The translations under genes were made by a program, and so were the position numbers. Shown in pieces: positions 8,050 through 55,214 of a stretch of DNA of 64,000 nucleotides (positions are counted from its first letter, which is position 1; every line of letters starts with the position of its first letter). The DNA comes from an uncultured Bacilli bacterium (GTDB lineage Bacteria > Bacillota_I > Bacilli_A > RF39 > UBA660): NCBI GenBank assembly GCA_934167485.1, contig CAKPKL010000002.1, forward strand, positions 83,027 through 147,026. Reading direction: 5' to 3'. The notes beneath the pieces are model-generated. The model saw only the letters and a list, made by a program, of their open reading frames with translations, had not been told where the DNA came from and made no database searches.

Positions 8050-8072
8050 ATTGAATAATCAATCACTTTCAT
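8050..8072. repeat. 23-bp direct repeat, copy 1 (ATTGAATAATCAATCACTTTCAT)
   Basis: Exact match to 9641-9663. It supplies the last three codons (ESD) and the TGA stop of the 492-aa pilin-like gene. Confidence 0.9.
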
Positions 8073-35811: not shown

Positions 35812-35854
35812 TGTAAAGAAAAAGAGTTATAAAACTATTTTAAGTTTATAACTC
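35812..35854 (-). terminator. rho-independent terminator after the 366-aa gene
   Basis: GAGTTATAAA-11 nt-TTTATAACTC followed by TTTTTCTTT. Confidence 0.6.
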
Positions 35855-41134: not shown

Positions 41135-41152
41135 TATCTCACCTTATTCTAA

Positions 41153-41632
41153 TTACTTATCATAATTTGTTATATCTACAGTATAATCATCTAAATATAC
41201 CTTATAATTCATCACACCATTTGTCACAATTATAAACAAATTGTTATTTTTGTCAGTAATATAATATTTCTGACCAGATATCTTATATGTACTTATTGAA
41301 GAAATTGTTGGATAAATTGTATTTACATAATTTACAAAACTATCATAACTTGGAAATTTAATATTTCTATAATTTTCATCTAGCATATTATAAGCTTTTA
41401 AAGTATCAGTCGAAAGAATAGAAATATAATCATTTAAATAAATGGTACATAACTCCTGCTTGCTAATATTAAAACTATAATATTCATTCGCTTCATACTT
41501 TTTAGGAGTTACTGGTAATTTACTTACATCAATAATTCCTTCGCTTTTTTTAGCAGTAAAATAATCTATAAAAAACAAAGATATAATTAAAACTATTAAA
41601 ACTATAATTACTATACTTATTTTTTTATTCAT
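41153..41632 (-). CDS. N-terminally anchored extracytoplasmic protein (candidate VirB8/TcpC-like component)
   Basis: 159 aa, one TM plus a ~125-aa domain. The function is positional inference only. Confidence 0.35.
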   Translation of the reverse strand: MNKKISIVIIVLIVLIISLFFIDYFTAKKSEGIIDVSKLPVTPKKYEANEYYSFNISKQELCTIYLNDYISILSTDTLKAYNMLDENYRNIKFPSYDSFVNYVNTIYPTISSISTYKISGQKYYITDKNNNLFIIVTNGVMNYKVYLDDYTVDITNYDK

Positions 41633-41634
41633 AT

Positions 41635-42135
41635 CTATCCCTCAAAAATTTCTCCATCATATGGTTCTATACTAAAAGTCATATTATTTGTATATAAATA
41701 AACTATAAAATAATAATTTTGACTTTGACCTACACTATCCATTAATTCTTGTCTATATGTTCCATAAACATAATACTTATAAATACTTTTATCTAATTGT
41801 TGATAATACATTTTTCTAGATGAAAAAACATCATTGAAATCAAATTTTTTTATATAATTAAATATATTATCTTGTGATATATTATTTTCTTTTATATATT
41901 CACTGTTAATTATATTAATTAAATTATCATAGTCATCATTCTGTGAATAAGTTATATATTTGTCTATACATGAAGAAACTTCAAAAAATTTATTTTGGTC
42001 TGTAACTATTTTTATTGAATTATCAATAGTATCTTTTTTATTATAAAAAGATACTATCTTAATAATCATTACAATAATTAAACCAATTCCCAATAAAATC
42101 AACATTATTTTTTGATTTTTATCTATTTTATCCAT
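41635..42135 (-). CDS. N-terminally anchored extracytoplasmic protein (candidate VirB8/TcpC-like component)
   Basis: 166 aa with the same architecture as the neighbour. Confidence 0.35.
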   Translation of the reverse strand: MDKIDKNQKIMLILLGIGLIIVMIIKIVSFYNKKDTIDNSIKIVTDQNKFFEVSSCIDKYITYSQNDDYDNLINIINSEYIKENNISQDNIFNYIKKFDFNDVFSSRKMYYQQLDKSIYKYYVYGTYRQELMDSVGQSQNYYFIVYLYTNNMTFSIEPYDGEIFEG

Positions 42136-42146
42136 TATATCACCTT

Positions 42147-43577
42147 TTAATATCCAAATATTTTTTGTCTTAAATTCAATTTGCCTTGCATTTGAAAAAT
42201 TGTATATCTAGATTGTTCCCAAGCCGTAACACGTGTACCTGATGCATGTTCTCCACCTGCATTTAAGCACTTTTCTACAAACTCTTGATGAGTTGAATAT
42301 ATTGTTTTTACGCCAGCACGATCTGGATCCATATAATAATATCCTCCAGCTCCGGAACTACCATATTCATGTTTTCCTAAGCTTGAATATATCATTTGCA
42401 TTCCAGCATATGTTCCAGGTAGTCCTATACCATTTAAATCTGCACCTGCAGCCTTTCTTGATTCATATGTTGACTTAATAAAATTAGCCATTGAACCACC
42501 TTCTTGATATCTTGCAAGTACTCCAGCATATCCTCTTACACCATCTGCAACAGATGAATATCTAGGACCAGCAGAACATCCCTTACCATTAGTTATTCCT
42601 ATACCCCAAAAGTTATTTGTAGTACCACAATTTTTAAAAGCCTGTTCCGTTCCAGCCGTAACTACTGCAAGTTCTGGGTTAACTCCGCTAGATATTGCAG
42701 CATCATATATTTCTTTAGCTTTTGCTGCAAAATTACTACAAAAACTAGCATTATTTGACCTATTACAATAATCATTCATTTTAGCAACAAATTCTTCTTT
42801 AGTTAAATTTGTAGTTGTTAATGAAAACCCATCAACAGATGATATTATAGGTCTTGGATCATCTGCTTTTACATAATTTAGTGGATTTAATTCTGATCCT
42901 TTACTTCTGCTAGTACGGATTTCAAAATGAAGATGTGGTCCCGTTGAGGAACCAGAATGTCCAAGTTTACCTATAACTTGTCCTCTTTCTACTGCATCAC
43001 CAGCCATTACTGTTATTGAATCTTTAGCTAAATGAGCATAATAAGTATAGTTACCATCTGGGTGTTGTATAATTACATAATTGCCATATCCTCCACCATC
43101 TGTATTTCCATAATATCCATTATCATTAAAAGATGTTTGAGATTTATTAGCAGGATATACTACTACTCCTGAATTTGAAGCTACTACATTATCATAATTA
43201 GCAGCACCTGTACTACTTCCAATATCTAAACCTTTATGTGCTGAATTTCTAAAACTCTCTTCACTATTAAAATCAGAAGTAATCTTAATTGTACTAGGAC
43301 TACCTTTAGCAAATAATTTACCATTTTCCTCAGTAGTCTCTAAACTTCCTATTGGCCACCAATATGCTATATTAATAGCTTCTTTTACTTCTACTACAGT
43401 TTCTTCTTGTTCTCCAGCTAATTCTTCATATTGGTCTTTAGCATCATATATCTCTCTCATCATATCTCTAACCCCTCTTTTATTTTCAGGGTTTACATAA
43501 TCATAAGCACTTACACTATATACAAATGAAAATAATGTTATAAAAACAACAATAAAATTTATATATTTTTTTAACAT
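42147..43577 (-). CDS. secreted bifunctional peptidoglycan hydrolase: M23 peptidase plus glucosaminidase/FlgJ-like domain
   Basis: Start at MLKKYINF (AGAGGTGA SD). M23 motifs HKGLDIG and GPHLHFEIR. C-terminal ...GTEQAF...NNFWGIG. Confidence 0.8.
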   Translation of the reverse strand: MLKKYINFIVVFITLFSFVYSVSAYDYVNPENKRGVRDMMREIYDAKDQYEELAGEQEETVVEVKEAINIAYWWPIGSLETTEENGKLFAKGSPSTIKITSDFNSEESFRNSAHKGLDIGSSTGAANYDNVVASNSGVVVYPANKSQTSFNDNGYYGNTDGGGYGNYVIIQHPDGNYTYYAHLAKDSITVMAGDAVERGQVIGKLGHSGSSTGPHLHFEIRTSRSKGSELNPLNYVKADDPRPIISSVDGFSLTTTNLTKEEFVAKMNDYCNRSNNASFCSNFAAKAKEIYDAAISSGVNPELAVVTAGTEQAFKNCGTTNNFWGIGITNGKGCSAGPRYSSVADGVRGYAGVLARYQEGGSMANFIKSTYESRKAAGADLNGIGLPGTYAGMQMIYSSLGKHEYGSSGAGGYYYMDPDRAGVKTIYSTHQEFVEKCLNAGGEHASGTRVTAWEQSRYTIFQMQGKLNLRQKIFGY

Positions 43578-43595
43578 TATATCACCTCTTAACAA

Positions 43596-44252
43596 CTATA
43601 TTTTATTTTCTTTTTTCTTTTTAAAACTAACATAATAAATAATAATTCCACCTACTATAATTATAAAACTAGGAATAATTATATATAAATATTTAAAATA
43701 ATTTGTATAATCTGATTCACTAAACTCAATCATTATATGATTATCTCCACCTCTTGTTAAATTCCATATATAAGAATTCCCATCTTGTTCTATAGAATTT
43801 GTTGAAATAACTTTATGATTGGTAGTAAAAATAAATTTTACAGTATCTAAATTATCATAATAATCAAAGCAATTAAAATTATTTCCTGTATCTATACTTA
43901 TAATATCATCTGATACTGTAATTGAATAATTTGTATAACATTGATTTAAAATAGATAAACCTTTAATATCATCAAGAAGCATTGATTTATTATACTCTAC
44001 ACCTAATTTATTATCATCACTTAAAGATTTAACACTATAATCTTCTTTTGAAAATTCATCTTTAGTTAACAGTGATTCAAATGATTCTCTAAGTGTCCAT
44101 CCAGATTCATCTTGAATATCAAATTTTGATTTATCATACTCTAATAAAGTTAATTTTTCCTTTACATTTGGGCCATTTACACTTACTTCATACTGTGCTG
44201 AACAACCACATAAAATAAACAATCCAATAAAAAATATTATTAATTTCTTCAT
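43596..44252 (-). CDS. lipoprotein with C-terminal TM anchor
   Basis: Lipobox FILCGC, 218 aa, hydrophobic C-terminus. Confidence 0.65.
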   Translation of the reverse strand: MKKLIIFFIGLFILCGCSAQYEVSVNGPNVKEKLTLLEYDKSKFDIQDESGWTLRESFESLLTKDEFSKEDYSVKSLSDDNKLGVEYNKSMLLDDIKGLSILNQCYTNYSITVSDDIISIDTGNNFNCFDYYDNLDTVKFIFTTNHKVISTNSIEQDGNSYIWNLTRGGDNHIMIEFSESDYTNYFKYLYIIIPSFIIIVGGIIIYYVSFKKKKENKI

Positions 44253-44258
44253 ATCACA

Positions 44259-46157
44259 CTAATCCTTTTTTTCATATACAACAACACTATAAACTTTGTA
44301 GTAATCATATAGAGATGTCATATTTGTTCCTGCTGGATCCATTATATAAATATCTCCTGTCGATGAATCAACATAATCAAGAGCAACATAATGATGAGCA
44401 GATTTTCTACCTTTTTTACCCACATGCAAAATGAAATAATACTTATTTGAATCATAACTTGAAATTTTACTTGCCAATGATGATTTACTCATCCCTACTG
44501 TAGAAAACTCTGTTTGTTTTATGAAAAAAGGCGCTAAATTTTTAACACTTCCCCAGTATAATCCACCACCACTTGTAAAACTAAATTTTTTAGCAGCTAT
44601 TCCTGGATCTAAAGAATCAGTTGTAATCGCAGTACCACTTCTAGCTATTTGAATTGATAAGGATGTGACTAAACATCCAATACTACACATAGTTCCACCT
44701 GGATTACCTATTTTTTTATTACTCCAGCTTTGTTTACATTGTGTCCAACTTCTAAAACTACCAACAGCAGCAGTGCCACTATTATTTATAGGTGGATTAT
44801 CTTCTTCTATTGATGTATCTTCATCTAAAAAATATTTTCTCTCTAAGAATTGTTTTAAAAACTCATCATATTTATTACGATCTAATAAATAGCCTAAATC
44901 TTCGGTTTGATATGTTTCTCCTTCTGCACATGTTATACTTTGAATACCTATTTCTGAATCCTTTAAAACATGTTCTTGTGTCCTAACACCAGATTCATTT
45001 TGACAATACTCATTTACTTGCTTAGATACCATATGTTGTGCGAGAAGTTCCATATCGTGTTGACTTTTAGTACTACTTAACTTATAATTACTCCAATCAT
45101 AATCATAAGCAAATTCAGCAATTGGTTTTTTCCTTGCTGTTTTTGCTCTATCTTCTTTAGTTAGATTGGAACTAAATATAACATTCATGTCATCAGATTG
45201 CATATTTAGTGTAGACATTAAAAGTGGTAAATCAAGATAAACTCCATAATCATCTCTATATGTAGTATATAAGTTATACATTTTAAAGAAAAAATCATAT
45301 ACCATATTCTTATCATAATCTTTACCATACTCACTAATAGTTGGATAAAAATCCTCTAATGAATCCAAATCAGCTTCGTTATATTTTCTTCTTAAATATT
45401 TTGTAGTTTTTGTTGAATCTAGTTTTAAACTCTTAAATTTATTAGAATTTGGTTCATATATATCTACATAAGCATATAAATTTGTATTATCTATATTATA
45501 ATTTATAGCCTCTTCTCCAGATTTATCTTCATCTACTGCATTTACATCATTTGATTTTTTATTAATTTTACCTTCAGCATCCTTTTCTGAAATAGAATCA
45601 GCATGTCCTAATTTTATTGAATTCAAAAAAATCATAGATGAAGGAATTATCATAGCAAGTATCATAAATGGAATTAATGAACCTAACAAAGCTATTGATA
45701 GATATTTAACAACTTGGTAAGTCATCTTAAAGCTTGAACCTCCACCATCAGATGTTTGCTCTTCTACTTGTTTTTGACCTCCACCCATTAATTTATCAAG
45801 TGCATTGAGTGCAAAATTTTTCTTTTTTGCATTTGATATTACCTTTTGACCTAACTCACTATTAACAGCTTTATCTGCTAGTGGTTTTGGTACACCAAGA
45901 GATTGTACTCCCTTAGATGCCAGTTCATTAGTTGCTTTGCTATTACTTGTATTAGGTCTTTTTCTTGGCATATTTAATTTTTGTTCCGCTGAAGAACTAT
46001 TAGAAGGACTATTATTTAAAGTGCTATTTCTATTATTATTTAAATTTTTATTATATGATTTTACCTTTTCTTCTAATCTTTTAGCTTCATTTTGGGCACT
46101 TAAATTCTTAACATAATTTTCTTTATTATTTTTTAAGAATACATCTTTATTATTCAT
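44259..46157 (-). CDS. bitopic protein with C-terminal papain-fold (C39-like/CHAP-like) cysteine peptidase domain
   Basis: Hydrophilic N-terminus, TM around residues 150-180. C-terminal Q..W...GGTMCSIGCLVTS ... HHYVALDYV ... IMDP. Confidence 0.55.
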   Translation of the reverse strand: MNNKDVFLKNNKENYVKNLSAQNEAKRLEEKVKSYNKNLNNNRNSTLNNSPSNSSSAEQKLNMPRKRPNTSNSKATNELASKGVQSLGVPKPLADKAVNSELGQKVISNAKKKNFALNALDKLMGGGQKQVEEQTSDGGGSSFKMTYQVVKYLSIALLGSLIPFMILAMIIPSSMIFLNSIKLGHADSISEKDAEGKINKKSNDVNAVDEDKSGEEAINYNIDNTNLYAYVDIYEPNSNKFKSLKLDSTKTTKYLRRKYNEADLDSLEDFYPTISEYGKDYDKNMVYDFFFKMYNLYTTYRDDYGVYLDLPLLMSTLNMQSDDMNVIFSSNLTKEDRAKTARKKPIAEFAYDYDWSNYKLSSTKSQHDMELLAQHMVSKQVNEYCQNESGVRTQEHVLKDSEIGIQSITCAEGETYQTEDLGYLLDRNKYDEFLKQFLERKYFLDEDTSIEEDNPPINNSGTAAVGSFRSWTQCKQSWSNKKIGNPGGTMCSIGCLVTSLSIQIARSGTAITTDSLDPGIAAKKFSFTSGGGLYWGSVKNLAPFFIKQTEFSTVGMSKSSLASKISSYDSNKYYFILHVGKKGRKSAHHYVALDYVDSSTGDIYIMDPAGTNMTSLYDYYKVYSVVVYEKKD

Positions 46158-46175: not shown

Positions 46176-47960
46176 CTATAGTCCTCCACCACTACCAAAT
46201 GAATCTAATTCTTCATCTGATACTATTACATTTATTCTCATTCTTCTACTACCACAAACAAATAATGCTTCACCTTGTTGATATTGTTTTATACTTTCTT
46301 TTTCATTATCATTTAAATCTATTAATTTTGCTAAATCATCAACAGCTTGTTTTTTTAGTCCCATTACCAAATAATAAGAAGCATTATCAAATATTGCTTT
46401 CCCTTGAGTAATTACACTAGGATCACTAAAATCTGTTGGTTGCTGAGTAATTATTATTGTTCCTGTATTGTACTTTCTTGCACGTCTTTGAATCTGTGCT
46501 AAAAAGTCTGCTCCTAAAGTATTTCCTCCACTAAGTAATACATGAGCCTCATCTACCATCATTACAGTATTAATAGAACTATTTAAAGTAAGTCCCCAAG
46601 CATATTTAAGTATATTAAAGAATAAAGCATTTCTAATATTTGTATCAGCATTCATTATTTCTCTTATATTGAATACAACAAAATTACTTTGTGGTTTTAT
46701 TGTTGTATGACCATCGAAATAATACTTAAGTTCTCTTACTATCGGTCTAATTTTTATCTCTAATTTTTCCAAAACATCTTTTTCTTGTGTCTTTTCTGGC
46801 ATAGATAAAATCCTACCCTTTATAGTAGCATATACATCTTTAAACGTTGGATAATCTTCTGAATGGTATTTAGTAAAATCAGAATTAAAATCTATACCAA
46901 ATCTTTTATATGTTTCTTGTACTACCTCACTAAACATATTTACGACATCTTCACCAATACTAGGATCATAATACTTTAAAAATGCTTTTATTGTTTGTAA
47001 AGTTCTAGTAAACACTGTATATCCAAGTCCTTGTCTCATTTCATCTTCATCAGCATCTACAATAACTTCAAGTGGATTTATCATACCAAAATCTCCACCT
47101 TTACCCAAACTAATGAAATCTCCATCAAAGGCATTAGTCATCTCTTCTAATTCTCCTTCTGGATCTATTACAACAACTTGATTATTATTTCTTATATGAC
47201 TTCTTAAAAGTAATTTAGCAGCTGTAGATTTACCACTACCACTTGTACCCAAAATAATCATATTGGCATTATTTCTATTATGTTCTTTTTTAATTTGATA
47301 TAAAAATTGATTAAATAATATTACACCACCTGAAAAATCTATTCCAAGTAAAGTAGATAAACCAGGGTCTTTAATACTATCAAATATAAACGGATACATA
47401 GCAGCCATAGTTGGAGATGGAATTGGTGTACCAATTCTATCTTCAATATCTTGTTTACCATATATAGGTATAATAGATTTCAAAACTTTATCTTGTTCAA
47501 ATCTTAAAGGTACAGCTCTCATTTCCATAGCTTCCAAATAATTTTTTACTTGTAATTTTTTAGAATCTAATTCTTCTTGAGTATCTGCAGTTATCATAAC
47601 ATGCATTTGAAAATCATATATTTTAGATTGACTAGCAGCAAGTTCACTAATAAACATCTCTAAAGATTCATAATCTTGACGAATTCTTTCTTGAATTGTT
47701 TTATCTTTTTCTTCTTGATATCTTTGTTTTAAATCCGCTAATTCTTTATTTAACATTTTACTTATACTACTAAAAGGAAGTGGTATATGTTTTATAACCA
47801 CTTTTATACCCGACATACTAGTTAAGCTACTTAAATACCCAGGATAAATAAATTTTGGAAAAGAAATTATAGTTAAAATACAAGCATATTTATCACTTAT
47901 AATAAATTGATTAGGTTTAAACTCCAATCCTTTTGGAGCAATTTGACTTCTTATATCCAT
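46176..47960 (-). CDS. VirB4-family T4SS ATPase, middle plus ATPase domains (C-terminal part of a split VirB4)
   Basis: Walker A ILGTSGSGKST, MMVDEAH Walker B, 594 aa. Confidence 0.85.
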   Translation of the reverse strand: MDIRSQIAPKGLEFKPNQFIISDKYACILTIISFPKFIYPGYLSSLTSMSGIKVVIKHIPLPFSSISKMLNKELADLKQRYQEEKDKTIQERIRQDYESLEMFISELAASQSKIYDFQMHVMITADTQEELDSKKLQVKNYLEAMEMRAVPLRFEQDKVLKSIIPIYGKQDIEDRIGTPIPSPTMAAMYPFIFDSIKDPGLSTLLGIDFSGGVILFNQFLYQIKKEHNRNNANMIILGTSGSGKSTAAKLLLRSHIRNNNQVVVIDPEGELEEMTNAFDGDFISLGKGGDFGMINPLEVIVDADEDEMRQGLGYTVFTRTLQTIKAFLKYYDPSIGEDVVNMFSEVVQETYKRFGIDFNSDFTKYHSEDYPTFKDVYATIKGRILSMPEKTQEKDVLEKLEIKIRPIVRELKYYFDGHTTIKPQSNFVVFNIREIMNADTNIRNALFFNILKYAWGLTLNSSINTVMMVDEAHVLLSGGNTLGADFLAQIQRRARKYNTGTIIITQQPTDFSDPSVITQGKAIFDNASYYLVMGLKKQAVDDLAKLIDLNDNEKESIKQYQQGEALFVCGSRRMRINVIVSDEELDSFGSGGGL

Positions 47961-48496
47961 TATGCTAACACCGTCCCAAATGTAGTGGTTTGTCCACCGT
48001 TTAAGAAATTATCAAGAATCATTCTTAAATCATCATTATTCGTTTGAAATGCAGTCAAACCTGCACTAGCAAAATTGTTGATTAAATTACGAATTCTCTT
48101 TTGAATAACATCATTATCTTTTTCTTTAAATAATAAGAAATATTCTGTATCAACAACATTGTTATTCATAAACATATTAGCTTTATTAATATCTTCCATA
48201 ATCAATTTTCTTTTCTTAGTATCATTTACCTGATTATACAATAATTGTAATTGAGATAAATATACATTTATGTCCACTGGCCTATCAGCAACAACAATCC
48301 AAAATTCATAATCTATAGCATTATAAACATTTTTTAAATTCATAATAATTGCATCTTGCATAGATTGATCAAGTATAAAAATATTTCTAGGCATAATTTT
48401 TACACCTGATACTTTTTGATTATTATCTAATACGATAACACCATTTGTAATATTTTTTACTGGCACATCAGTATATTTACTTTTTACTTGTTTCGC
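47960..48496 (-). CDS. VirB4 N-terminal domain as a separate ORF
   Basis: ...VKNITNGVIVLDNNQKVSGVKIMPRNIFILDQSMQDAII... resembles the first ~180 aa of Tn916 Orf16/ConE-type VirB4. The stop TAA overlaps the next ATG (TAATG). The start is uncertain (48496 or 48559). Confidence 0.55.
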   Translation of the reverse strand, partial: AKQVKSKYTDVPVKNITNGVIVLDNNQKVSGVKIMPRNIFILDQSMQDAIIMNLKNVYNAIDYEFWIVVADRPVDINVYLSQLQLLYNQVNDTKKRKLIMEDINKANMFMNNNVVDTEYFLLFKEKDNDVIQKRIRNLINNFASAGLTAFQTNNDDLRMILDNFLNGGQTTTFGTVLA

Positions 48497-48797
48497 CATG
48501 ATCAAAGCACCAACCCTTCCATATATATCTTTGTCTAGTAGTATAAAATTCCCAAGCATTTTTTATTACAGTTCTTATATTGTGATAATTTGGTACAGGT
48601 AATACCAAAAATCCACATATAAGTCCTGGAGCAATAGCAAGTATTGCTACCCAAAACTCTTTGACAGGGAGAATCATCATTAATAATAATGATAATCCAA
48701 CTCCACTACCAAATATAATTAAATCTACTGTATTGAAAAGTCCAAACATCAACATACTCTTCTTTGAGTTTGCTGGTATTAAATATGAATTTTCCAT
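48477..48797 (-). CDS. PrgI/VirB3-like small two-TM protein
   Basis: 106 aa with two TM segments, immediately upstream of and overlapping VirB4. Confidence 0.5.
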   Translation of the reverse strand: MENSYLIPANSKKSMLMFGLFNTVDLIIFGSGVGLSLLLMMILPVKEFWVAILAIAPGLICGFLVLPVPNYHNIRTVIKNAWEFYTTRQRYIWKGWCFDHGETSKK

Positions 48798-48820
48798 TTA
48801 GTATCACACCCTTTTTATTC

Positions 48821-51199
48821 TTATGAACCTCCGCCTAAACGTCTATTATTATGAGATTCAACATTTGTTTTAATTGTAGAACGTTTATCTTGATATTCTT
48901 TTTCACGTTCGCTAATAATTCTTTTAGCTTCAGCAATAGTAATCTCTTTGCCTTCAAACATAACTTTAGTATCTTCTCTAAGTTCACTAATTTCTTTATC
49001 AATTTTAGCCATTTCTTCTTTGGCAGCTGCATGTTTAGCTTCTATATTCTCTGATTCTGTTGCCAAGCCATCAGATTGTGATTTTATTTCAGTTGCAACT
49101 GTCTCAACACTCTCACCATTTGCTTTCGCTGTTTCTTCATACGTTGAATATCTTGCAGCAAAATCTGAATGTCCTTTATCATAAGAAGCTTTCTCTTCTT
49201 CCGACATTTCATGGAAATCAATATTACCATCTGCATCTCGTACATAATCTAGTCCATCTGCTGAAACTGTTGGAGCATATCCTGCTTTTCCTTGTAACCT
49301 AACTTCTAAATGCTCCAAGGCTCCTTGTTTATTTTGATAGAACCCTACAGCTCCTTTTGCTTCAGTTGCAATTTCATCAGTTATAACTTCACCTTTTTTT
49401 ACAACAGCTTCTTGTAATTTCATATTACCATTTTTATCCTTAACACGTCTGTAGTATTTTATATCATTTTCTGCTACTTTTCCAGCATCTTGAACCAAAT
49501 GATCCCTTACTGTCTCTAAATAGTCACTTTTTTTGCTTATAGTACCTGCCTTACCACCTGTTATTTCAGATTTTGAAAAATCTACAAGTGCTTTACCACT
49601 ATCTGCTGTAGTCTTCTTTTTCTTAGCAACATACTCTTCAGCTGCTATACTATCTTTAATTGCTTTTTTTCTATTCTCTTTTTCGTTAACTTGGGCATTT
49701 AAATTTCTTTCCGCCAAATCTATATTATGTTTATCCGTTGTTATTTTTCTACCCTGACGAGCTAATCCAGCATTTTCTAATCCCAAAGCTGAAGCGGCAC
49801 CATAAAAATTTCTTTTTAAAAAACCATCGCCATTTATTCTCGACTCTATCATTTTTCTATTTGCGTCAGCTTGTTTAGACATACCACCTTTAAAACCTTT
49901 GTTCGCAGACATTCCTCTTGCTGCACCTCTAATTAATTGTCCTCGAGGCAGCCCAGCTAAAGCTCCACCTACAGCTCCTGTTATTCTTTTTCCACCGGCT
50001 GCTTGTTCTTCAAACTTTTTAAGCGGATTTAGGAAGAATTTGCCATCACCATCAAGTTTAATTCCTAAGCCTTCTAATATCTTTGGTAATTGTTTAGCAA
50101 ACATTAAAGCTCCAATAATTATAAATATTGAAATAAGACGATTTGATACATAAGAACCATCTATTATATCAACCATTTTTCTATCTGCAACTTTACTTAT
50201 AATAAATACTGCAAAATAAAGTGCTAAAAGTCTTACAAACAAGCTTAAGAACGTTTTAAAACACATTTGATACCATTTCTTAAATAATCCATCTTTACCA
50301 CTTTTTGGATCTACATAGGATATAATTGGAATAGGTGCCATTAATTGTAAAAATGAAAGCTTAATACTACGCATAGCAACATCCATACAGAAAGTTATTA
50401 AAAGGAAAACTATAACCACACCAACTACTGTACTAAACCCATATTTATAATCTATAATATATTCTTTATCTTCTGTTGTAGCTTTAACCATATCTTTTCT
50501 AAACATAAGTCCTAAACTACCAGCCTCTACACCTCTAACATAATCTTTTAAATCCTCTTCAGTAAAATTTTTATCGTTAACTAAGCCTCTCATAGAGTCA
50601 TCTCGTCCATTATCTTCATAATCTGAACTATCTAACCCAGAACATTTCGTATTAAAATGTCTATTTCCTTTTGTATCTACTTCTATTAAATCTGTACAAT
50701 CATATAACTTAACTAAAGATGTATTAGGTGAGAAAAATGCACTCATTGTAATAAACGACATATCTTGTCCTGCCGTATTTAAAAAATTATCATTACTTTC
50801 TGTTCCAAATACCAAAGTAGCAAGAGAATTATCTTCTAAAATTATAGTTTGTAACCTAAAAGCATAATTAAATACATATGGAGTTAATATTAAAAGTGCT
50901 AATGAAATAATGATATTTGTTCCAAGTTTAGCAACTCCTTTTGACTTATCTGAAAAATCATCTGGATTTACTATATATGTTATTAAAGAAAGAGTAACTT
51001 TAAAAATCATAAAAATTGCTAACAACTTATATATTCTATCAGCCATTTGTGATATATCACCTTGTGTTAAAACTGATGTTCTTGCTATTGAAATTAGTAA
51101 ATCGTATATTTGTGGTATAAAATTATAAACAACTTTATCTAACAAATAAAACATTTCTCTAAATATACTATCAAACCAAGTAGCTGCTAAAATATACAT
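48821..51199 (-). CDS. VirB6-like polytopic channel protein with ~400-aa hydrophilic/coiled-coil C-terminal extension
   Basis: 792 aa. About 6-7 TM segments in the first 390 aa. The remainder is charged (KEKE-rich). Confidence 0.55.
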   Translation of the reverse strand: MYILAATWFDSIFREMFYLLDKVVYNFIPQIYDLLISIARTSVLTQGDISQMADRIYKLLAIFMIFKVTLSLITYIVNPDDFSDKSKGVAKLGTNIIISLALLILTPYVFNYAFRLQTIILEDNSLATLVFGTESNDNFLNTAGQDMSFITMSAFFSPNTSLVKLYDCTDLIEVDTKGNRHFNTKCSGLDSSDYEDNGRDDSMRGLVNDKNFTEEDLKDYVRGVEAGSLGLMFRKDMVKATTEDKEYIIDYKYGFSTVVGVVIVFLLITFCMDVAMRSIKLSFLQLMAPIPIISYVDPKSGKDGLFKKWYQMCFKTFLSLFVRLLALYFAVFIISKVADRKMVDIIDGSYVSNRLISIFIIIGALMFAKQLPKILEGLGIKLDGDGKFFLNPLKKFEEQAAGGKRITGAVGGALAGLPRGQLIRGAARGMSANKGFKGGMSKQADANRKMIESRINGDGFLKRNFYGAASALGLENAGLARQGRKITTDKHNIDLAERNLNAQVNEKENRKKAIKDSIAAEEYVAKKKKTTADSGKALVDFSKSEITGGKAGTISKKSDYLETVRDHLVQDAGKVAENDIKYYRRVKDKNGNMKLQEAVVKKGEVITDEIATEAKGAVGFYQNKQGALEHLEVRLQGKAGYAPTVSADGLDYVRDADGNIDFHEMSEEEKASYDKGHSDFAARYSTYEETAKANGESVETVATEIKSQSDGLATESENIEAKHAAAKEEMAKIDKEISELREDTKVMFEGKEITIAEAKRIISEREKEYQDKRSTIKTNVESHNNRRLGGGS

Positions 51200-51249
51200 T
51201 GTTACTCCTCCTTAAAATCTTTTATATAAAGACATTTATACACAGTATC

Positions 51250-51258
51250 ATTATAACA
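51250..51258 (-). promoter_or_regulatory. extended -10 (TGTTATAAT) in front of the VirB6-like gene
   Basis: The reverse complement of 51250-51258. It follows the terminator T tract directly. Confidence 0.4.
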
Positions 51259-51289
51259 AAAAAAGAGCAAATAATCAATAATTATTTGC
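51258..51289 (-). terminator. intra-cluster rho-independent terminator after VirB2-like gene C
   Basis: GCAAATAAT-TATTG-ATTATTTGC followed by TCTTTTTTT. Confidence 0.6.
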
Positions 51290-51304
51290 GTCTTATTTAA
51301 GTTT

Positions 51305-51685
51305 CTATTCAGCATCTGCAATTTGACATGCTTTTTCTGAAGCTTCACCACTTATAAAGCAGTTAAAACAATTCATTATATTTGGATCACTACTAGAAAC
51401 AAATCTAATAATAATTTGAACAACTTGAATTACAAAGAAAACAATAACAGCTGCTATTAATCTCTTTATAAACATTTGTTGACCTTTCTTTATTTCATCT
51501 TCTTTAGCTGCTATTACAGCTTTTCCTAGATCTAACATACCAAATATTATTAATAAAATTGGTACAGCAATCTTAATAATTAAAATTATTGTAGATACAA
51601 GATAAGGGAAAGTACCAGAAAAAACTAAACTAGTTCCTCCACAAGTATATTCAGATTGCATTAAAACCTTTGCCGCTAATATCAT
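51305..51685 (-). CDS. VirB2/TrbC-like two-TM small protein, paralogue C (no signal peptide; own promoter and terminator)
   Basis: 126 aa: ..YTCGG..IAVPILLIIFGMLDLGKAVIAAKEDEIKKGQQMFIKRLIAAVIVFFV...CFNCF. AGGAGG SD. Confidence 0.7.
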   Translation of the reverse strand: MILAAKVLMQSEYTCGGTSLVFSGTFPYLVSTIILIIKIAVPILLIIFGMLDLGKAVIAAKEDEIKKGQQMFIKRLIAAVIVFFVIQVVQIIIRFVSSSDPNIMNCFNCFISGEASEKACQIADAE

Positions 51686-51709
51686 TCTATTCCTCCTAAC
51701 ACTAAATTA

Positions 51710-51738
51710 ATTATATATTTTTTTTATTTAAAAGTCAA
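51710..51738 (-). promoter_or_regulatory. near-consensus sigma-A promoter for paralogue C
   Basis: TTGACT (51738-33), 17-nt spacer, TATAAT (51715-10). Confidence 0.6.
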
Positions 51739-51748
51739 TAATCTTGAA

Positions 51749-52873
51749 TTATTTTAATTTTCCAATTACATAAGGATCATTAGAAGTACCCTTACCAGTT
51801 GTATATAACTCATTTCCATCTATGTATATAACTATATTATATGATGCATTAGTATTAGCAGTTTCAAATGTAGTTAACTCATTTGAAACATATATAACAT
51901 CATAAGAAGTATCAGATGATGAATTTAATGTCCAAGTTGATAAAGGCATATAATACAAGTAATTATAATTATTACAAGAACGTGCTGCTGTAGAATTACA
52001 TTCTGGATCCAAACTTGCCATAAAGTAATCTGATACGTTCACCAATGAGATAACCTCATTCTCTAATATTTCATTACAATCAATTTCTCTACTAATTGAA
52101 TAATCAGAAGCACTTCTTTTACCTATACAAGCATTGTAAGAAACAATGTGTTGTCTTGCATCTTTTTTTATTTTTTTGACGTTTAAATAATCTTCCATAA
52201 GATATGATCTTATCTTACTATCTTTATATATATTTTTACCTACAGTTCTATTAATTTCAGTATTAAATTTGCTATCCCACATTCTAGAATTTAATTCTGT
52301 TTCTGATCTAACTAACTTTACTATACCATTAGAATCTATACTCATGATTCTATATTCTTTTCCATAAAAATTAATATAATTTTTAGGCTTTTCACCTTTA
52401 AATATGTATTCATTGCCTACTTGATATAGCCCAGCCTCTGTAGTTGTTAAACTCTCCATTAATTTATCATTTAAATGAACTGTTGAATATTTATCACATT
52501 CCAAATTAGGAATATAATTCAAATATCCACCTTCATTAGCTTCTACAACTTGACCATTTCTTCTTACAGTAACATTTCCTTTACAAGTTGTATCATCTAA
52601 TAATTTTTCTGTAGATTTAATAAAACCTCCATCAACTAATTTTTTTATACTAATTACTTCAGTTTCTGATTCCTTAGTTAAATCTATTTTTTCACTTTTT
52701 ATGTAATTTTTAGCTGCTGCAATCATTTTAGTCTCATACTTTTCATAAGACATCTTTCTATTGCCACATGCTTGAATGATTGCTAAAAAGACTAATAAAA
52801 CTACAGGTATTAAAATAATTCCCCCAACAGTTATTAAGAACTTTTTATCCATTTTTTTTAATGCATCTATCAT
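51749..52873 (-). CDS. N-terminally anchored secreted protein of unknown function
   Basis: 374 aa, single TM near the N-terminus, Cys-containing extracellular region. Confidence 0.55.
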   Translation of the reverse strand: MIDALKKMDKKFLITVGGIILIPVVLLVFLAIIQACGNRKMSYEKYETKMIAAAKNYIKSEKIDLTKESETEVISIKKLVDGGFIKSTEKLLDDTTCKGNVTVRRNGQVVEANEGGYLNYIPNLECDKYSTVHLNDKLMESLTTTEAGLYQVGNEYIFKGEKPKNYINFYGKEYRIMSIDSNGIVKLVRSETELNSRMWDSKFNTEINRTVGKNIYKDSKIRSYLMEDYLNVKKIKKDARQHIVSYNACIGKRSASDYSISREIDCNEILENEVISLVNVSDYFMASLDPECNSTAARSCNNYNYLYYMPLSTWTLNSSSDTSYDVIYVSNELTTFETANTNASYNIVIYIDGNELYTTGKGTSNDPYVIGKLK

Positions 52874-52887
52874 AAGTTCCTCCTATA

Positions 52888-53319
52888 TTATCTATTTTTA
52901 CAAGTACCATCAGTTTCATTAACACCATTTAAAAAGCAATTAACACAATCTATCATATTTCCATTTTTATCATCTGCTACAAAACTAAATAATAGTTTTA
53001 CTATAGCTATAACAAAGAATACAATAGCTGCCGCTAATAATCTTTTTATAAACATTTGTTGTCCCTTTTTTATTTCATCTTCTTTTTGCGCAGTTATAGC
53101 TTTAAATAAATCTAACATTCCCATTATTACTAAAACTATTGGTACTGCTATTTGAATTACCAAAATTACAGTGTGTACTGTATTTGGAATTTTAGGAGCT
53201 AATTCTACATTCTTTCCTCCAAAAGCACTTATACACCCTTTTGTTGTTACAGCCATTACAGAAGGTGTATATAATACTGCAAAAGCCATTGCTAAAATTA
53301 AAGTTATTTTTTTCTTCAT
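52888..53319 (-). CDS. VirB2/TrbC-like two-TM small protein, paralogue D
   Basis: Signal peptide, then ..GCISAF..IAVPIVLVIMGMLDLFKAITAQKEDEIKKGQQMFIKRLLAAAIVFFV..CVNCF. Confidence 0.7.
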   Translation of the reverse strand: MKKKITLILAMAFAVLYTPSVMAVTTKGCISAFGGKNVELAPKIPNTVHTVILVIQIAVPIVLVIMGMLDLFKAITAQKEDEIKKGQQMFIKRLLAAAIVFFVIAIVKLLFSFVADDKNGNMIDCVNCFLNGVNETDGTCKNR

Positions 53320-53321
53320 GT

Positions 53322-53732
53322 TTATTCCTCCTTACAATCATTACTCATAAAACAATCAACACAATCAATTATGTTCGTACTACTATTATCAGCTACTATA
53401 CTTATTAAAAATTTTGCTATTACAATTACAAAGAATATCAAAGCTGCTATAAGTAATCTTTTTATAAACATTTGTTGTCCTTTTTTAATTTCATCATCTT
53501 TCTGTGCAGATATTCCTTTAAATAAATCTATAGATCCCATAACTACTAATATAACAGGCACTGCTATTTGAATTAAAGTTATGGCAAAACTAACTAATTC
53601 AGGTATTTTTGCAGGTATGCCAGTAACATTGCCACAACTTACCCTACTCATCTCAATAGCATATATATTGGTAAACGGAATAACAGCTATTAATAATCCC
53701 ATTAAAGATAAACTTGATATTTTTTTCTTCAT
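53322..53732 (-). CDS. VirB2/TrbC-like two-TM small protein, paralogue E
   Basis: ..SCGNVTGIP..IAVPVILVVMGSIDLFKGISAQKDDEIKKGQQMFIKRLLIAALIFFV..CVDCF. Confidence 0.7.
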   Translation of the reverse strand: MKKKISSLSLMGLLIAVIPFTNIYAIEMSRVSCGNVTGIPAKIPELVSFAITLIQIAVPVILVVMGSIDLFKGISAQKDDEIKKGQQMFIKRLLIAALIFFVIVIAKFLISIVADNSSTNIIDCVDCFMSNDCKEE

Positions 53733-53740
53733 TTTATCAC

Positions 53741-54184
53741 CTATTTTTTATTAGAACACTCACCACTTATAAAACAATCAGCACATTCAAGTATTCTACT
53801 ACCGTTATTATCAGCTACTAAACTAATAACAAACTTTACTACAACAAATACAAAGAATACAAGCGCTGCTGAAATTAATCTTTTTATAAATATCTGTTGA
53901 GCTTTTTTTATATCATCATCCTTTTGTGCAGATATAGCCTTAAATAAATCTAACATTCCCATTATTACTAAAACTATTGGTACTGCTATTTGAATTGCTA
54001 TATATACAATCTTTATAACTTGTGGAATCAAACTTGGAATATTAGTTAATAGATTATCACCACAACTTACAACTGCGTTCTTGTCATAATTATTATACGT
54101 ATCTGCTTGTACAAAGTCAATAAAAACAACATTAATTAATAGAATTAATAAACAAATTAACACTTTTTTTCTACTTTTTTTCAT
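53741..54184 (-). CDS. VirB2/TrbC-like two-TM small protein, paralogue F
   Basis: ..SCGDNLLTNIP..IAVPIVLVIMGMLDLFKAISAQKDDDIKKAQQIFIKRLISAALVFFV..CADCF. Confidence 0.7.
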   Translation of the reverse strand: MKKSRKKVLICLLILLINVVFIDFVQADTYNNYDKNAVVSCGDNLLTNIPSLIPQVIKIVYIAIQIAVPIVLVIMGMLDLFKAISAQKDDDIKKAQQIFIKRLISAALVFFVFVVVKFVISLVADNNGSRILECADCFISGECSNKK

Positions 54185-54198
54185 TCTTTCCCCCTAAA

Positions 54199-55200
54199 CT
54201 AAATTTCTGATTGTTGTTTAGAAAAACCTAGTTTCACCAACATTTTATTAAGTTCTGGTAATTTTTTACTTCTTTCATTCAATGGAACTAGATTATAAAA
54301 AACTTTAATTCTGGCTTCATATTCAAAATTAGCAACCTCTCTAGAATCTAATAAACTTTGATTTAATACAATTTTTTTACCTTTCAATCCATATAAAGCA
54401 TTAGCATTAAGTACCATTAGTTTTTCTAATTTTATAATAGATGGTTCTATTAAATATAAAACTTCTTGGCAAAAGCCTTCAGCTACCATACTATTATTTA
54501 TATCAACAATAATAATATTTTTATCTTTATTTTTATTTATAACAACACCTATATCACTAGTAATAGTTGAAATTAAACGTTTATCTTTAAAATAAGTAAA
54601 ATCATTTTTATCAACTTCTATACCAACAACACTATAATTTTTACTTAATTCCTTAACCATCATATAAACTAAACTACTAGCCCCAGATTGCTTAGTTATA
54701 TTTTTAACACCTATTATTCTAGTCCCATAAAACTCTGGTGTTTCTGGAACATCAATAGTGGGAGATATAAATTGAGCTTGTGGATTTTGTTGTTGCATAT
54801 TTGCATTAGCAAACGTTGCATCCAACCTATGGAATTGAGCGACATCTCTATAACTGTTTGGACTATTATATAAATATTGAATTCCTTCAAAATTTTTAGC
54901 AAAATTATAAATTCCCATAGATACTAAATTAGATAAAAAGTTAGGATTGCATGTTGCATCTGTTCCATCCAACAATAAAATAACTTTTTCCATATCTAAT
55001 GCCATTGATAATTTTTGTAAATTCACAATATCAGTATAATTTTTTATTGCAGTAATGTCAAGTATCATCCTCTGATAAAAGAAATTTTGAAATGTAGCAA
55101 TTATTTCATCTACATCAAACTCACCATTCATTTCTTTTATTACATCAATACCTAAATTTTCTAACATAGCTTGATTTTTATTTGATATAATTACATTCAT
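54199..55200 (-). CDS. TadZ/CpaE-like protein (receiver-like N-domain plus ParA/MinD-like domain with degenerate P-loop)
   Basis: 333 aa. IIGVKNITKQSGASS sits where KGGxGK[ST] is expected, and IIIVDIN is Walker-B-like. Confidence 0.45.
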   Translation of the reverse strand: MNVIISNKNQAMLENLGIDVIKEMNGEFDVDEIIATFQNFFYQRMILDITAIKNYTDIVNLQKLSMALDMEKVILLLDGTDATCNPNFLSNLVSMGIYNFAKNFEGIQYLYNSPNSYRDVAQFHRLDATFANANMQQQNPQAQFISPTIDVPETPEFYGTRIIGVKNITKQSGASSLVYMMVKELSKNYSVVGIEVDKNDFTYFKDKRLISTITSDIGVVINKNKDKNIIIVDINNSMVAEGFCQEVLYLIEPSIIKLEKLMVLNANALYGLKGKKIVLNQSLLDSREVANFEYEARIKVFYNLVPLNERSKKLPELNKMLVKLGFSKQQSEI

Positions 55201-55214
55201 AAATTCTCCCCTTT

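Follow-up and report, generated by a model that had tools for sequence, protein, structure and literature searches.

Pilin-like two-helix proteins encoded beside a chromosomal type IV secretion locus of an uncultured Bacilli bacterium

Gene content and conservation of the locus

The window (the whole 64,000-nucleotide stretch of DNA analysed here) carries four small pilin-like genes, C to F, all on the - strand and at the positions given in a preliminary description of the sequence. That description had counted four copies in the cluster, which undercounts the family: a profile search added two more, G and H, so that the window holds six copies of the module. In both of these the pilin-like module forms the C-terminus of a longer secreted protein, with the signature ATCGF...GCG in G (C-F profile E 7e-17) and the full signature, VTCGN...CMSCF, in H (E 2.4e-31). 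The six copies are:

51305..51685, - strand: C, core pilin-like protein, 126 aa, without signal peptide, Cys at residue 15, directly upstream of VirB6
52888..53319, - strand: D, pilin-like paralogue with signal peptide, 143 aa (alignment, AF2 hairpin, D-type orthologous group)
53322..53732, - strand: E, pilin-like paralogue with signal peptide, 136 aa (alignment, orthologous group)
53741..54184, - strand: F, pilin-like paralogue with signal peptide, 147 aa (alignment, orthologous group)
35835..36935, - strand: G, long form, 366 aa, with the pilin module at the C-terminus after a secreted N-domain rich in Cys
26909..27898, - strand: H, long form, 329 aa, full module at the C-terminus

H is sited among housekeeping genes, far from the cluster. 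The G type lies between C and VirB6 in many species, and in the window it is displaced by about 12 kb. Around the array are found:

54199..63672, - strand: Tad/Flp-like type IV filament module, directly upstream of the array and co-oriented with it
within 54199..63672, - strand: 333-aa protein at the TadZ position
within 54199..63672, - strand: two pseudopilin-like proteins, 165 aa and 309 aa (ricin lectin domain)
within 54199..63672, - strand: Flp-like protein, 92 aa
within 54199..63672, - strand: two membrane proteins at the TadC/TadB positions
within 54199..63672, - strand: T2SSE/VirB11/TadA-like ATPase
within 54199..63672, - strand: CpaB-like protein and DUF5411 protein
within 54199..63672, - strand: 224-aa and 539-aa proteins
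51749..52873, - strand: p374, bitopic membrane protein between D and C, with a weak DUF6273 match
48821..51199, - strand: VirB6/TrbL-like polytopic protein, 792 aa (PF19597 TrbL_4, 6.4e-9; NF045889 Mbov_0396, 1.1e-10)
48477..48797, - strand: VirB3/PrgI-like protein, 106 aa (PF12666 PrgI, E 0.0013)
46176..48559, - strand: VirB4 ATPase as two ORFs (N part 47960-48559, C part 46176-47960)
39062..46157, - strand: rest of the T4SS module, comprising the next five lines
within 39062..46157, - strand: 632-aa protein with a possible C-terminal Cys-peptidase-like region
within 39062..46157, - strand: 218-aa lipoprotein-like protein
42147-43595, - strand: M23 peptidase
within 39062..46157, - strand: two small bitopic proteins, 166 aa and 159 aa
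39062-41134, - strand: VirD4 coupling protein (passes the NF045973 cut-off, 297 bits vs 250)

C thus sits immediately upstream of VirB6-VirB3-VirB4, the adjacency expected of a VirB2-like pilin gene. The best NCBIfam matches of the VirB6- and VirB4-like neighbours are the Mollicutes ICE families NF045889 and NF045975; for the latter (VirB4_plasma) the C part of VirB4 scored 2.6e-103 and the N part 7.6e-13. We compared the locus with 75 related loci fetched from species-representative genomes, whose source labels are mostly uncultured gut Bacilli or 'Tenericutes', with some Bacteroidota-labelled bins. Where the contig reaches, the common order is Tad-like genes, pilin-like genes, VirB6-VirB3-split VirB4, hydrolases and VirD4. 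VirB6 was detected in 63 of the 75, the TadZ-position protein in 69, and VirB4 is split in 59-60; the gene order of the Tad/Flp-like module is likewise kept across the 75. Tad genes went undetected over the 8-10 kb upstream of the pilin genes and T4SS of two loci (L056 and L071).

The flanks consist of housekeeping genes, with scpAB upstream and rmuC, RNase R, smpB and IF2 downstream, and the array together with the T4SS forms a chromosomal locus. No relaxase or integrase family was found among the cluster ORFs, although a relaxase could lie elsewhere in the genome, and a search for a plasmid matching the locus returned none. The cluster therefore does not show the combination of a T4SS with a relaxase and an integrase or replication module that marks a conjugative element.

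Paralogy, topology and cysteine pattern of the array proteins

C, D, E and F are true paralogues, D, E and F being 43-50% identical to C in an alignment that spans the whole mature length. When a four-member C-F profile was run against the window's 394 ORFs, each member was recovered at E 1e-56 to 1e-68, and their relatedness is therefore far beyond chance. The alignment has 34 invariant columns, which include IAVP, G..DL.K, K.D.IKK.QQ.FIKRL, FFV and CxxCF. The Gly after the N-terminal Cys was counted among them, but D differs in having Ile there (GCIS, as originally read). The wider family comprises 7,406 clusters at 50% identity, with no Pfam assignment and no informative name, and long forms with the module at the C-terminus account for about half of its best 150 representatives.

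Across species F, E, D and C are old orthologous groups whose order is fixed. The C type is the universal copy, kept even in minimal two-pilin loci, and is the best conserved of the paralogues. Since the groups are ancient and their order is constant, the earlier suggestion that the copies are antigenic variants is unlikely.

Direct reading of the N-termini of D, E and F reveals a KKK region, a hydrophobic core and an AxA-like site, none of which is present in C. A hydrophobicity scan of the counterparts in other species agreed with this reading: the maximum over the first 25 residues was 2.2-3.8 in most signal-peptide-bearing copies and 0.5-1.6 in 40 C-type orthologues, with no signal peptide in the C type of about 38 of 40 species. 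The distribution of signal peptides proposed at the outset, present in D, E and F and absent from C, is thus supported.

The AF2 model of D (pLDDT 78) consists of a signal helix and a helical hairpin (H43-76/H80-114; 34 and 35 residues). The hairpin loop, at about 20 residues, is longer than is typical for VirB2-like pilins and has a net charge of +2, while the tails are acidic or neutral (0 to -4), in agreement with the two-helix hairpin and charged loop first described. Long-form relatives carry dockerin, GDSL lipase and Flg_new (Listeria-Bacteroides repeat) domains N-terminal to the module, and so both Cys regions very probably lie outside the cell, as had been supposed. Two TM helices, a charged loop and external termini correspond to the broad definition of a VirB2-like protein.

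The preliminary description had recognised an N-terminal Cys and a CxxC pair. Both are genuine, but its count of three was too low, since the conserved Cys number four: a first one preceding TM1, the two of CxxC, and a last one 6-10 residues beyond them. Exactly one Cys in the N-tail, none in the hairpin and three in the C-tail were found in 401 of 480 distinct modules, and the total outside the membrane is even in about 96% of the 480. G-type modules have just one Cys on each side of the hairpin. Such strong parity is what a staple would require and lends weight to the idea of a disulfide-stapled hairpin; the 1+3 pattern with even totals would fit one, although the disulfides themselves are something we infer.

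Expression signals around C

Two predicted signals bracket the C gene:

51710..51738, - strand: sigma-70-type consensus promoter, TTGACT-17-TATAAT, in the 63-nt gap upstream of C
51245..51304, - strand: intrinsic-terminator hairpin and U-run just after C, overlapping the next promoter

Of 40 species loci, 36 have a promoter of the form TTGA[CT][ATC]-N16-18-TA[TA]AAT in the corresponding gap. The terminator has a fold energy of -12.3 kcal/mol (z -5.4). Over 16 species, compensatory changes affect 5 of the 11 pairs of its hairpin, and the -35 box, T-run and -10 box at the junction of terminator and next promoter are invariant. The promoter that overlaps the terminator, TTGATT-17-TGnTATAAT, would drive the VirB6 operon. 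The other genes of the array are spaced 2-14 nt apart. A predicted promoter and terminator of its own, together with the lack of a signal peptide, are as expected of a gene that would encode a major subunit.

Similarity to T4SS pilin families

In Pfam scans C, D and F scored 10.2, 10.0 and 16.1 bits (E 0.012 for F) against PF18895 (T4SS_pilin) and E gave no match, all below the Pfam gathering score of 26.6 bits. G reached 26.6 bits, exactly the gathering score, and H, at 23.3 bits, fell below it. Precomputed PF18895.6 annotation is present on 11 of 24 G-type relatives, and when the C-F and G-type families were aligned hhalign returned a probability of 99.3% (E 1.5e-20). C-F are thus homologous to Pfam-assigned PF18895 proteins by way of their G-type relatives.

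Among 58 short forms, 34 match PF18895 at E<=0.1 (best 9.5e-7), and no PF18895 matches were listed for the reversed sequences of the same 58. However, DUF621, an unrelated nematode family, was matched by 39 of the 58 in native orientation and DUF973 by 42 in reversed orientation (best 6e-6). E-values are unreliable for such hydrophobic sequences, and because these two families reach similar counts and E-values, the PF18895 signal is on score alone no stronger than noise. What singles PF18895 out is its orientation specificity, the gene context and the G-type bridge, which makes the link of C-F to T4SS pilins indirect but coherent. We know of no structurally proven pilus built from a PF18895 protein.

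The similarity to TrbC/VirB2 (PF04956) suggested at the outset did not materialise: hhalign gave a probability of 0.2% for the C-F family against 30 canonical VirB2 sequences, and PF04956 was not among the families listed in any of the Pfam scans. Nor was there detectable similarity between PrgF and C-F (hhalign probability 0.15%), and profile searches against PDB sequences found nothing. Foldseek comparison of the AF2 model with the PDB gave no pilin, the best E being 2.6 (HtrII, ATP-synthase subunit c, Mediator subunits), but this negative is weak because two-helix hairpins give little discriminating signal.

A resemblance to the pilin-like proteins of Mollicutes ICEs, mentioned in the preliminary description, is real but weak. 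G matches NF045849 ('Mbov_0395 family pilin-like conjugal transfer protein') at E 0.0016 (18.1 bits, 68 of 80 profile positions) and H at E 0.21 (11.3 bits), both short of the curated cut-off of 40 bits. Six of the 58 short forms match at E<=0.5, and C-F themselves have no match at E<=1. There are also weak matches to DUF4134, the TraE family of Bacteroides conjugative transposons, which is regarded as VirB2-like.

Comparison with known systems

The premise that Gram-positive T4SSs lack VirB2 has been overturned by work on PrgF of pCF10. This protein of 75 aa has two TM helices and no signal peptide, and its gene lies near virB6; it is essential for conjugation and was modelled as a pilus on VirB6, and PrgF-like genes were found in 95% of the conjugative plasmids of Gram-positive bacteria (bioRxiv 10.64898/2025.12.18.695078). 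The array proteins share with PrgF and other Gram-positive VirB2-like proteins a size of 50-150 aa, two TM helices, a charged cytoplasmic loop and a position just upstream of virB6-virB3-virB4, and C, like PrgF, has no signal peptide. The pCF10 order prgF-prgG-prgH(VirB6)-prgI-prgJ, which we checked, matches C-VirB6-VirB3-VirB4 in the window. However, PrgF has no Cys and short tails, and is a single copy on a conjugative plasmid with a relaxase, whereas the window has several copies, Cys tails of the disulfide type, paralogues with signal peptides and domain fusions, in a chromosomal setting where no relaxase was seen.

In Patescibacteria, pilin genes of the PF04956/PF18895 type are arrayed in groups of 2-11 next to a relaxase-less MPF-FATA-like T4SS (PMC12102498). 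These too encode small two-TM proteins, often Sec-secreted, and lie near virB4 with a chromosomal T4SS, in organisms where a type IV filament system matters too. In contrast to them, C-F score below the PF18895 cut-off, and a 1+3 Cys/CxxCF signature with a long, conserved KEDEIKKGQQMFIKRL loop marks them as a distinct family of 7,406 clusters that carries no annotation. The hosts here are a low-GC lineage of uncultured gut Bacilli rather than CPR, the paralogues form ordered orthologous groups with 43-50% identity as opposed to an average of ~25%, and a Tad-like operon is joined physically to the array.

Mycoplasma ICEs show the same order of pilin-like, VirB6-like (NF045889/NF045848) and VirB4 (NF045975) genes (cf. 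Mbov_0395-0396-0397), but scores in the window are far below the cut-offs of these families (pilin 18 bits vs 40, VirB4 346 vs 590), and Mycoplasma ICEs, unlike the window, are mobile, belong to wall-less hosts and lack a Tad module. With canonical TrbC/VirB2 (PF04956), for which we take Agrobacterium VirB2 (PDB 8cue/8exh) as the example, C-F share the two-helix hairpin, the basic loop, the external tails and a leader that is predicted to be removed in D, E and F. A covalent link between N- and C-regions is plausible in both, by cyclisation in TrbC/VirB2 and by disulfide in C-F. They differ in the much longer loop and the monoderm envelope, and show no profile-profile similarity or Foldseek match.

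Possible roles of the array proteins

We consider it probable, if well short of certain, that C-F, G and H belong to the PF18895 'T4SS_pilin' superfamily and serve as VirB2-like subunits in a chromosomally fixed monoderm T4SS of MPF-FATA/Mollicutes-ICE-like type. The array proteins are most likely subunits of the pilus or conduit of the secretion machine, the part whose absence from Gram-positive systems was long assumed. Monoderm VirB2-like pilins are a recently recognised kind, of which the C-F family is a new form. Each subunit would insert as a helical hairpin with its tails outside and the basic loop K.D.IKK.QQ.FIKRL toward the cytoplasm. The one N-tail and three C-tail Cys would make two disulfides tying both tails, a functional counterpart of the cyclisation that joins head to tail in TrbC and VirB2. 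A VirB4-powered machine might then extract the subunits and stack them on the VirB6 platform as a short pilus or conduit through the wall, its lumen lined by the loop. We infer both polymerisation and a division of roles in which C, lacking a signal peptide and having its own consensus promoter and terminator, would be the abundant major subunit; D, E, F and the domain-carrying long forms would be minor or accessory subunits that co-assemble with C or decorate the structure.

The module could instead be a hairpin retained in the membrane that never polymerises outside, either as an inner-membrane platform subunit of the T4SS or Tad system or as a C-terminal two-TM anchor that keeps secreted domains, such as those of adhesins, lipases and dockerin proteins, on the cell surface close to the machine; the short forms would in that case be 'empty' anchors or regulators. 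The large share of long forms with a C-terminal module among the best 150 representatives would suit an anchor, as would the enzymatic or adhesive N-domains of some of them, which are unlike classical VirB2 pilins (we know of none with large N-terminal fusions), the siting of H among housekeeping genes, and the generic membrane hairpin that is all Foldseek returns. However, a simple anchor leaves unexplained the extreme conservation of the loop across paralogues, the fixed position beside VirB6 in related loci, the dedicated promoter and terminator of the domain-less C gene, and the links to PF18895 and Mbov_0395, and we regard this explanation as possible but unlikely.

That C-F belong to the adjacent Tad/Flp-like filament system, as novel assembly or platform proteins or an unusual class of pilin, seems to us very unlikely. 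It is true that 14 nt separate the start of the array from the upstream 333-aa gene that occupies the TadZ position, that the region is co-oriented throughout, with tiny gaps, and that Tad-like genes co-occur in most loci. Yet a pair of TM helices following a Sec signal is not the build of Flp-type pilins, in which a single hydrophobic helix at the N-terminus goes with a prepilin motif, and a Flp-like gene (92 aa) and two pseudopilin-like genes are already present in the locus. Moreover, C, the universal copy, is set apart from the Tad genes and lies directly against VirB6, L056 and L071 keep pilin and T4SS in the absence of detectable upstream Tad genes, and the families matched by profile are those of T4SS pilins rather than Flp or TadE. 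It is more improbable still that C-F are unrelated small membrane proteins (holin-like, immunity or entry-exclusion) merely travelling with the locus. Small proteins with two TM helices are widespread and difficult to assign, and the sequence-profile evidence for C-F themselves is weak, but synteny, order and copy types are kept across the 75 related loci, toxin, lysis and mobile-element genes are absent nearby, and the family is homologous to PF18895-positive proteins.

Extending the VirB2-like reading, we speculate, while thinking it rather doubtful in full, that this low-GC gut Bacilli lineage has a vertically inherited composite nanomachine, with a relaxase-less T4SS and a Tad-like filament in one superoperon. 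Its conduit would be a heteromeric, disulfide-stapled VirB2-like pilus (C major; F, E, D and G ordered minor subunits, some displaying enzymes or adhesins by N-terminal fusion) that serves contact-dependent exchange with bacteria or a host rather than plasmid transfer. If true, this would be a solution convergent or shared with the T4SS and type IV pilus apparatus essential to the epibiotic life of Patescibacteria.

Finally, p374, encoded between D and C, is present in 40 of the 75 loci and has a long N-terminal helix and an extracellular domain with six invariant Cys.

A family of six pilin-like proteins

Four related two-TM proteins, C to F, had been described in one cluster. The four ORFs do lie on the minus strand at these positions, and in a MAFFT alignment D, E and F share 43-50% identity with C, with 34 columns invariant among the four. 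These include the Gly after the N-terminal Cys, IAVP, G..DL.K, the loop K.D.IKK.QQ.FIKRL, FFV and CxxCF. A profile built from the four and run against every stop-to-stop ORF of the window (394 in all) retrieved its own members at E values of 1e-56 to 1e-68. It also added two longer copies, G and H, so the paralogy is real and the copy count of four was too low. The original observation is thus real, and stronger than originally stated.

Pilin-like copies in the window
51305-51685, minus strand: C, short form without signal peptide
52888-53319, minus strand: D, short form with signal peptide
53322-53732, minus strand: E, short form with signal peptide
53741-54184, minus strand: F, short form with signal peptide
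35835-36935, minus strand: G, long form of 366 aa (C-F profile, E 7e-17)
26909-27898, minus strand: H, long form of 329 aa (C-F profile, E 2.4e-31)

In G and H the pilin-like module forms the C-terminal 100 residues, and the remainder is Cys-rich and bears a signal peptide. H is flanked by a PTAC-domain gene on one side and peptidase U32 genes on the other. G sits beside genes for RNase R and a DUF2238 protein, shifted by about 12 kb from the position between C and VirB6 that many species keep. Typical Sec signal peptides, called by reading the sequences and by a hydrophobicity scan of counterparts in other species, are present in D, E and F and absent from C. Lipoprotein processing of C was rejected, as it has neither a lipobox nor the hydrophobic region.

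One gene order in the related loci

More than 4,600 relatives came up in a word-indexed search; the top matches listed carried no Pfam domains and were named only 'hypothetical protein', from Bacilli bacterium MAGs. An exhaustive search of 50%-identity representatives gave 7,406 clusters at E<=1e-3, of which 2,815 also pass E<=1e-10; many of the representatives span 170-450 aa and carry the module C-terminally. With one genome taken per GTDB species, 186 stretches encoded a relative, and 75 of these loci were compared. Their sources are digesters and the guts of humans, rabbits, mice and ruminants, and most of the MAGs go under uncultured Bacilli, Tenericutes or Mycoplasmatota. A few other labels occur among the bins (Muribaculaceae, Bacteroidaceae, Roseburia), which we suspect to be wrong. 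No relevant literature on T4SS or pili in RF39 was found.

As far as each contig reaches, the 75 loci have one gene order: a Tad-like module, a protein in the TadZ position (detected in 69/75), one to four pilin-like genes, the gene for p374 (a 374-aa bitopic membrane protein), a pilin-like gene of 115-135 aa, an optional long form of 370-470 aa, VirB6 (63/75), VirB3, VirB4-N, VirB4-C, hydrolases and VirD4. A simpler form of the locus carries two pilin-like genes but not p374.

When every pilin-like ORF of these loci was typed by its best window paralogue, 16 loci showed the order F-E-D-C and another 6 the order F-E-D-C-G, the G type lying between C and VirB6 in many species. The last short copy before VirB6 is nearly always of the C type, which minimal loci retain; it carries no signal peptide in roughly 38 of 40 species and begins M(x)FL...YTCG. 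Since the order is fixed across loci, the paralogues are old orthologous groups. Recent duplicates and variation cassettes were rejected on this ground, and the earlier suggestion of antigenic variants falls with them.

A chromosomal T4SS joined to a Tad-like operon

The pilin-like cluster is chromosomal. The window has about 26% G+C and nearly all its genes lie on the minus strand; precomputed Pfam annotation places IF2, NusA, RbfA, RNase R, SmpB, GreA and several sporulation genes on the same 332-kb contig. The cluster is bordered by scpA/scpB upstream and rmuC downstream. Neither megablast of 48000-56000 nor tblastn of F matched a PLSDB plasmid, so the locus is no known plasmid. Relaxase and integrase families were found in no ORF of the cluster or its flanks, and comparison with PHROGs gave nothing meaningful. 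TGA terminates 2/36 ORFs; genetic code 4 was therefore rejected and the standard code applies.

Main features of the machinery
63672 to 54199, minus strand: Tad/Flp-like module, upstream of F
46176-48559, minus strand: split VirB4, a 199-aa N part and a 594-aa C part
51245-51304, minus strand: predicted terminator-promoter junction, a hairpin and U-run directly 3' of the C stop codon

In order of transcription, the Tad/Flp-like module is followed by F, E, D, p374 and C, then VirB6 (VirB6/TrbL-like), VirB3 (VirB3/PrgI-like) and the two VirB4 ORFs. Behind these come a 632-aa protein, a lipoprotein-like protein, an M23 peptidase, two small bitopic proteins and VirD4, which exceeds the NF045973 cut-off. 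The two VirB4 parts correspond to positions 106-276 and 295-891 of NF045975, and base 47960 is common to the stop of one ORF and the start of the other. Because VirB4 is split in 59-60 of the 75 species loci, this is a conserved feature and no frameshift or sequencing error.

The Tad/Flp-like module encodes a CpaB-like protein, a T2SSE ATPase, a pair of membrane proteins, an Flp-like protein of 92 aa, two pseudopilin-like proteins, of which one carries a ricin lectin domain, and p333, a 333-aa protein that occupies the TadZ position and had no matches in the PDB. The T2SSE ATPase, a hexameric enzyme (58837-60012, minus strand), has its best NCBIfam matches in VirB11 (2.1e-33) and TrbB, with the TadA-family and ComGA models behind. 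This enzyme could serve the T4SS, the filament or both. The p374 profile matched only a type IV pilin, in its N-terminal helix and without significance (E 0.81), and the single-sequence AF2 model of p374 (pLDDT 38) was unusable.

The Flp-like position (56760-57038 in the window) varies among strains with identical flanks (for example L080:13839-15565 versus L081:13840-14118, two related loci), being filled by a 92-aa gene, an 88-aa gene or 62-aa and 498-aa genes, so that strains have exchanged the filament subunit. Behind VirB4, the 632-aa protein (44259-46157, minus strand) has no family match; Cys and His motifs in its C-terminal 170 residues (GTMCSIGC...HHYVALDY) recall wall hydrolases of the papain-like or CHAP type. 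If it is a hydrolase, it would be a second VirB1-type enzyme alongside the M23 peptidase.

Expression signals around C

Genes of the array are spaced by 2-14 nt, except around C. The 63-nt gap preceding C contains TTGACT-17-TATAAT, with an equivalent consensus promoter in 36 of 40 species. The hairpin after C (-12.3 kcal/mol, z -5.4) has changed on both sides in 5 of its 11 pairs across 16 species, with pairing kept, and in the same species its 3' arm and T-run are overlapped by an invariant promoter, TTGATT-17-TGnTATAAT. The 3' arm and U-run thereby double as the -35 box and spacer of this following promoter, and 51245-51304 would be a compact terminator-promoter junction. A genome-wide promoter/terminator scan showed no enrichment (128 sites against 135 expected from shuffles); the sites flanking C are credible through their cross-species conservation only. 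As conserved sites, they make C a promoter-gene-terminator unit insulated from the machinery operon, a layout that would be expected for an abundant structural subunit.

Predicted topology and the cysteine tails

An AF2 model of D, made with 58 relatives (pLDDT 78), consists of a signal helix, a hairpin of two helices of about 34 residues that turns at A-Q-K, and a short C-terminal helix. The loop has a net charge of +2 and the tails are neutral to acidic, which fits an N-out/C-out topology. Independent support comes from the N-terminal parts of some long forms (among relatives P0121-P0269), where dockerin (4), GDSL lipase (3) and Listeria-Bacteroides repeat (3) domains occur, all of them extracellular.

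Of the 480 distinct complete modules analysed, 401 show the same layout, with a single Cys ahead of TM1, a Cys-free hairpin and exactly three Cys beyond TM2. The Cys count outside the membrane is even in about 96%, and modules of the G type retain one Cys per side. With a single Cys in the N-tail, any intramolecular pair joins N-tail to C-tail. Pattern and parity thus support the disulfide-stapled hairpin proposed in the preliminary description, and fall short of proof; the four Cys may alternatively form a metal site or engage in intermolecular bonds. The staple is a testable alternative to pilin cyclisation.

Even Cys numbers recur in most predicted extracellular proteins of the locus:
51749-52873: p374, 6 invariant Cys
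61386-62060: p224, a 224-aa protein of the Tad-like module, 6 Cys
62053-63672: p539, a 539-aa protein of the same module, 6 Cys
43596-44252: lipoprotein-like protein, 4 Cys

This pattern suggests that the anaerobe forms extracytoplasmic disulfides; no thiol oxidase was seen within the window.

Relation to VirB2-like pilins

The family had been called VirB2-like. With the canonical VirB2 family (PF04956), hhalign found no profile-profile similarity, and PrgF of pCF10 likewise gave no hhalign signal. Family profiles matched no PDB sequences, and Foldseek of the D model against the PDB returned generic hairpins only. Direct profile support for PF18895 is weak in C-F themselves, which score 10-16 bits, under the cut-off of 26.6. 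It improves across the wider family, where 34/58 short forms match at E<=0.1 (best 9.5e-7) and 22/129 long forms at E<=0.01. G attains the cut-off, Pfam annotates PF18895 in 11/24 G-type relatives, and the C-F and G-type families align with an hhalign probability of 99.3%. The matches vanish on reversed sequences, although unrelated TM families reach similar counts (DUF621 in native orientation, DUF973 reversed). The PF18895 scores cannot settle the matter by themselves; what carries the assignment is orientation specificity, together with the bridge through the G type and the gene context.

Weak matches to NF045849, a pilin-like family of Mollicutes ICEs, fit the best NCBIfam matches of the VirB6- and VirB4-like neighbours, Mbov_0396 and Mbov_0397. 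A few members match DUF4134, the Bacteroides TraE family. When 58 members were scanned against NCBIfam, MamI, a two-TM magnetosome protein, dominated the matches (43/58), along with other noise. NF045848, a VirB6-like Mollicutes family, was weakly matched by 10/58 short forms.

Taken together, the best explanation, which we favour with moderate confidence, is that these proteins are VirB2-like in a broad, functional sense and form a divergent PF18895 branch; membership of canonical TrbC/VirB2 is not supported. The main rival, that the module is a membrane-retained anchor or platform subunit, we consider rather unlikely.

VirB2-like pilins of monoderm T4SS were recognised only in 2025, with PrgF and the Patescibacteria arrays, and are nearly invisible to sequence searches. 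PrgF is essential for conjugation and has been modelled as a pilus atop a VirB6 pentamer, and 95% of Gram-positive conjugative plasmids carry comparable small two-TM genes near virB6 (bioRxiv 10.64898/2025.12.18.695078, a December 2025 preprint). Patescibacteria have chromosomal, mostly relaxase-less MPF-FATA-like T4SS with VirB2-like genes (PF04956 or PF18895) near virB4, in 441 arrays of 2-11 genes; the same study still states that Gram-positive T4SS classes lack virB2 (PMC12102498). The present family resembles this class in architecture and position and differs in its own sequence signature, its disulfide-type tails, and its ordered paralogues and domain fusions; the locus differs in its chromosomal relaxase-less setting and its physical fusion with a Tad-like operon. 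On this comparison the family would be a variant of the recently recognised VirB2-like monoderm pilins.

The subfamily is very large, unannotated and easily recognised by its C(G) motif, KEDEIKKGQQMFIKRL loop and CxxCF, a signature by which gut metagenomes could be searched for such systems. It offers a natural example of ordered pilin paralogues and pilin-domain fusions, and draws attention to a T4SS-Tad superoperon that is conserved in the chromosomes of an uncultured but abundant gut lineage.

Other observations

Three proteins encoded on the minus strand at 3550-3933, 6375-7835 and 8059-9537 have weak to clear N_methyl (type IV prepilin) motifs, two of them being unusually large (486-492 aa). 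They would represent a third filament-type system of the window, besides the Tad-like module and the T4SS. On a window-matching contig, the region just beyond scpAB, upstream of scpB and outside the window (L081:1-5350), encodes a second VirD4-like protein, a ResIII helicase and an acetyltransferase, where other strains have tRNA-methyltransferase and bacA genes; this set is probably a separate inserted element. Finally, the window contains sporulation and germination genes (3978-4997, 28528-28887 and neighbours: GPR peptidase A25, GerQ, YabP and SpoVG), with a SpoVIF gene immediately outside it; MAGs of the lineage often carry Tenericutes or Mycoplasmatota labels. The bacterium itself probably forms spores and has a wall.
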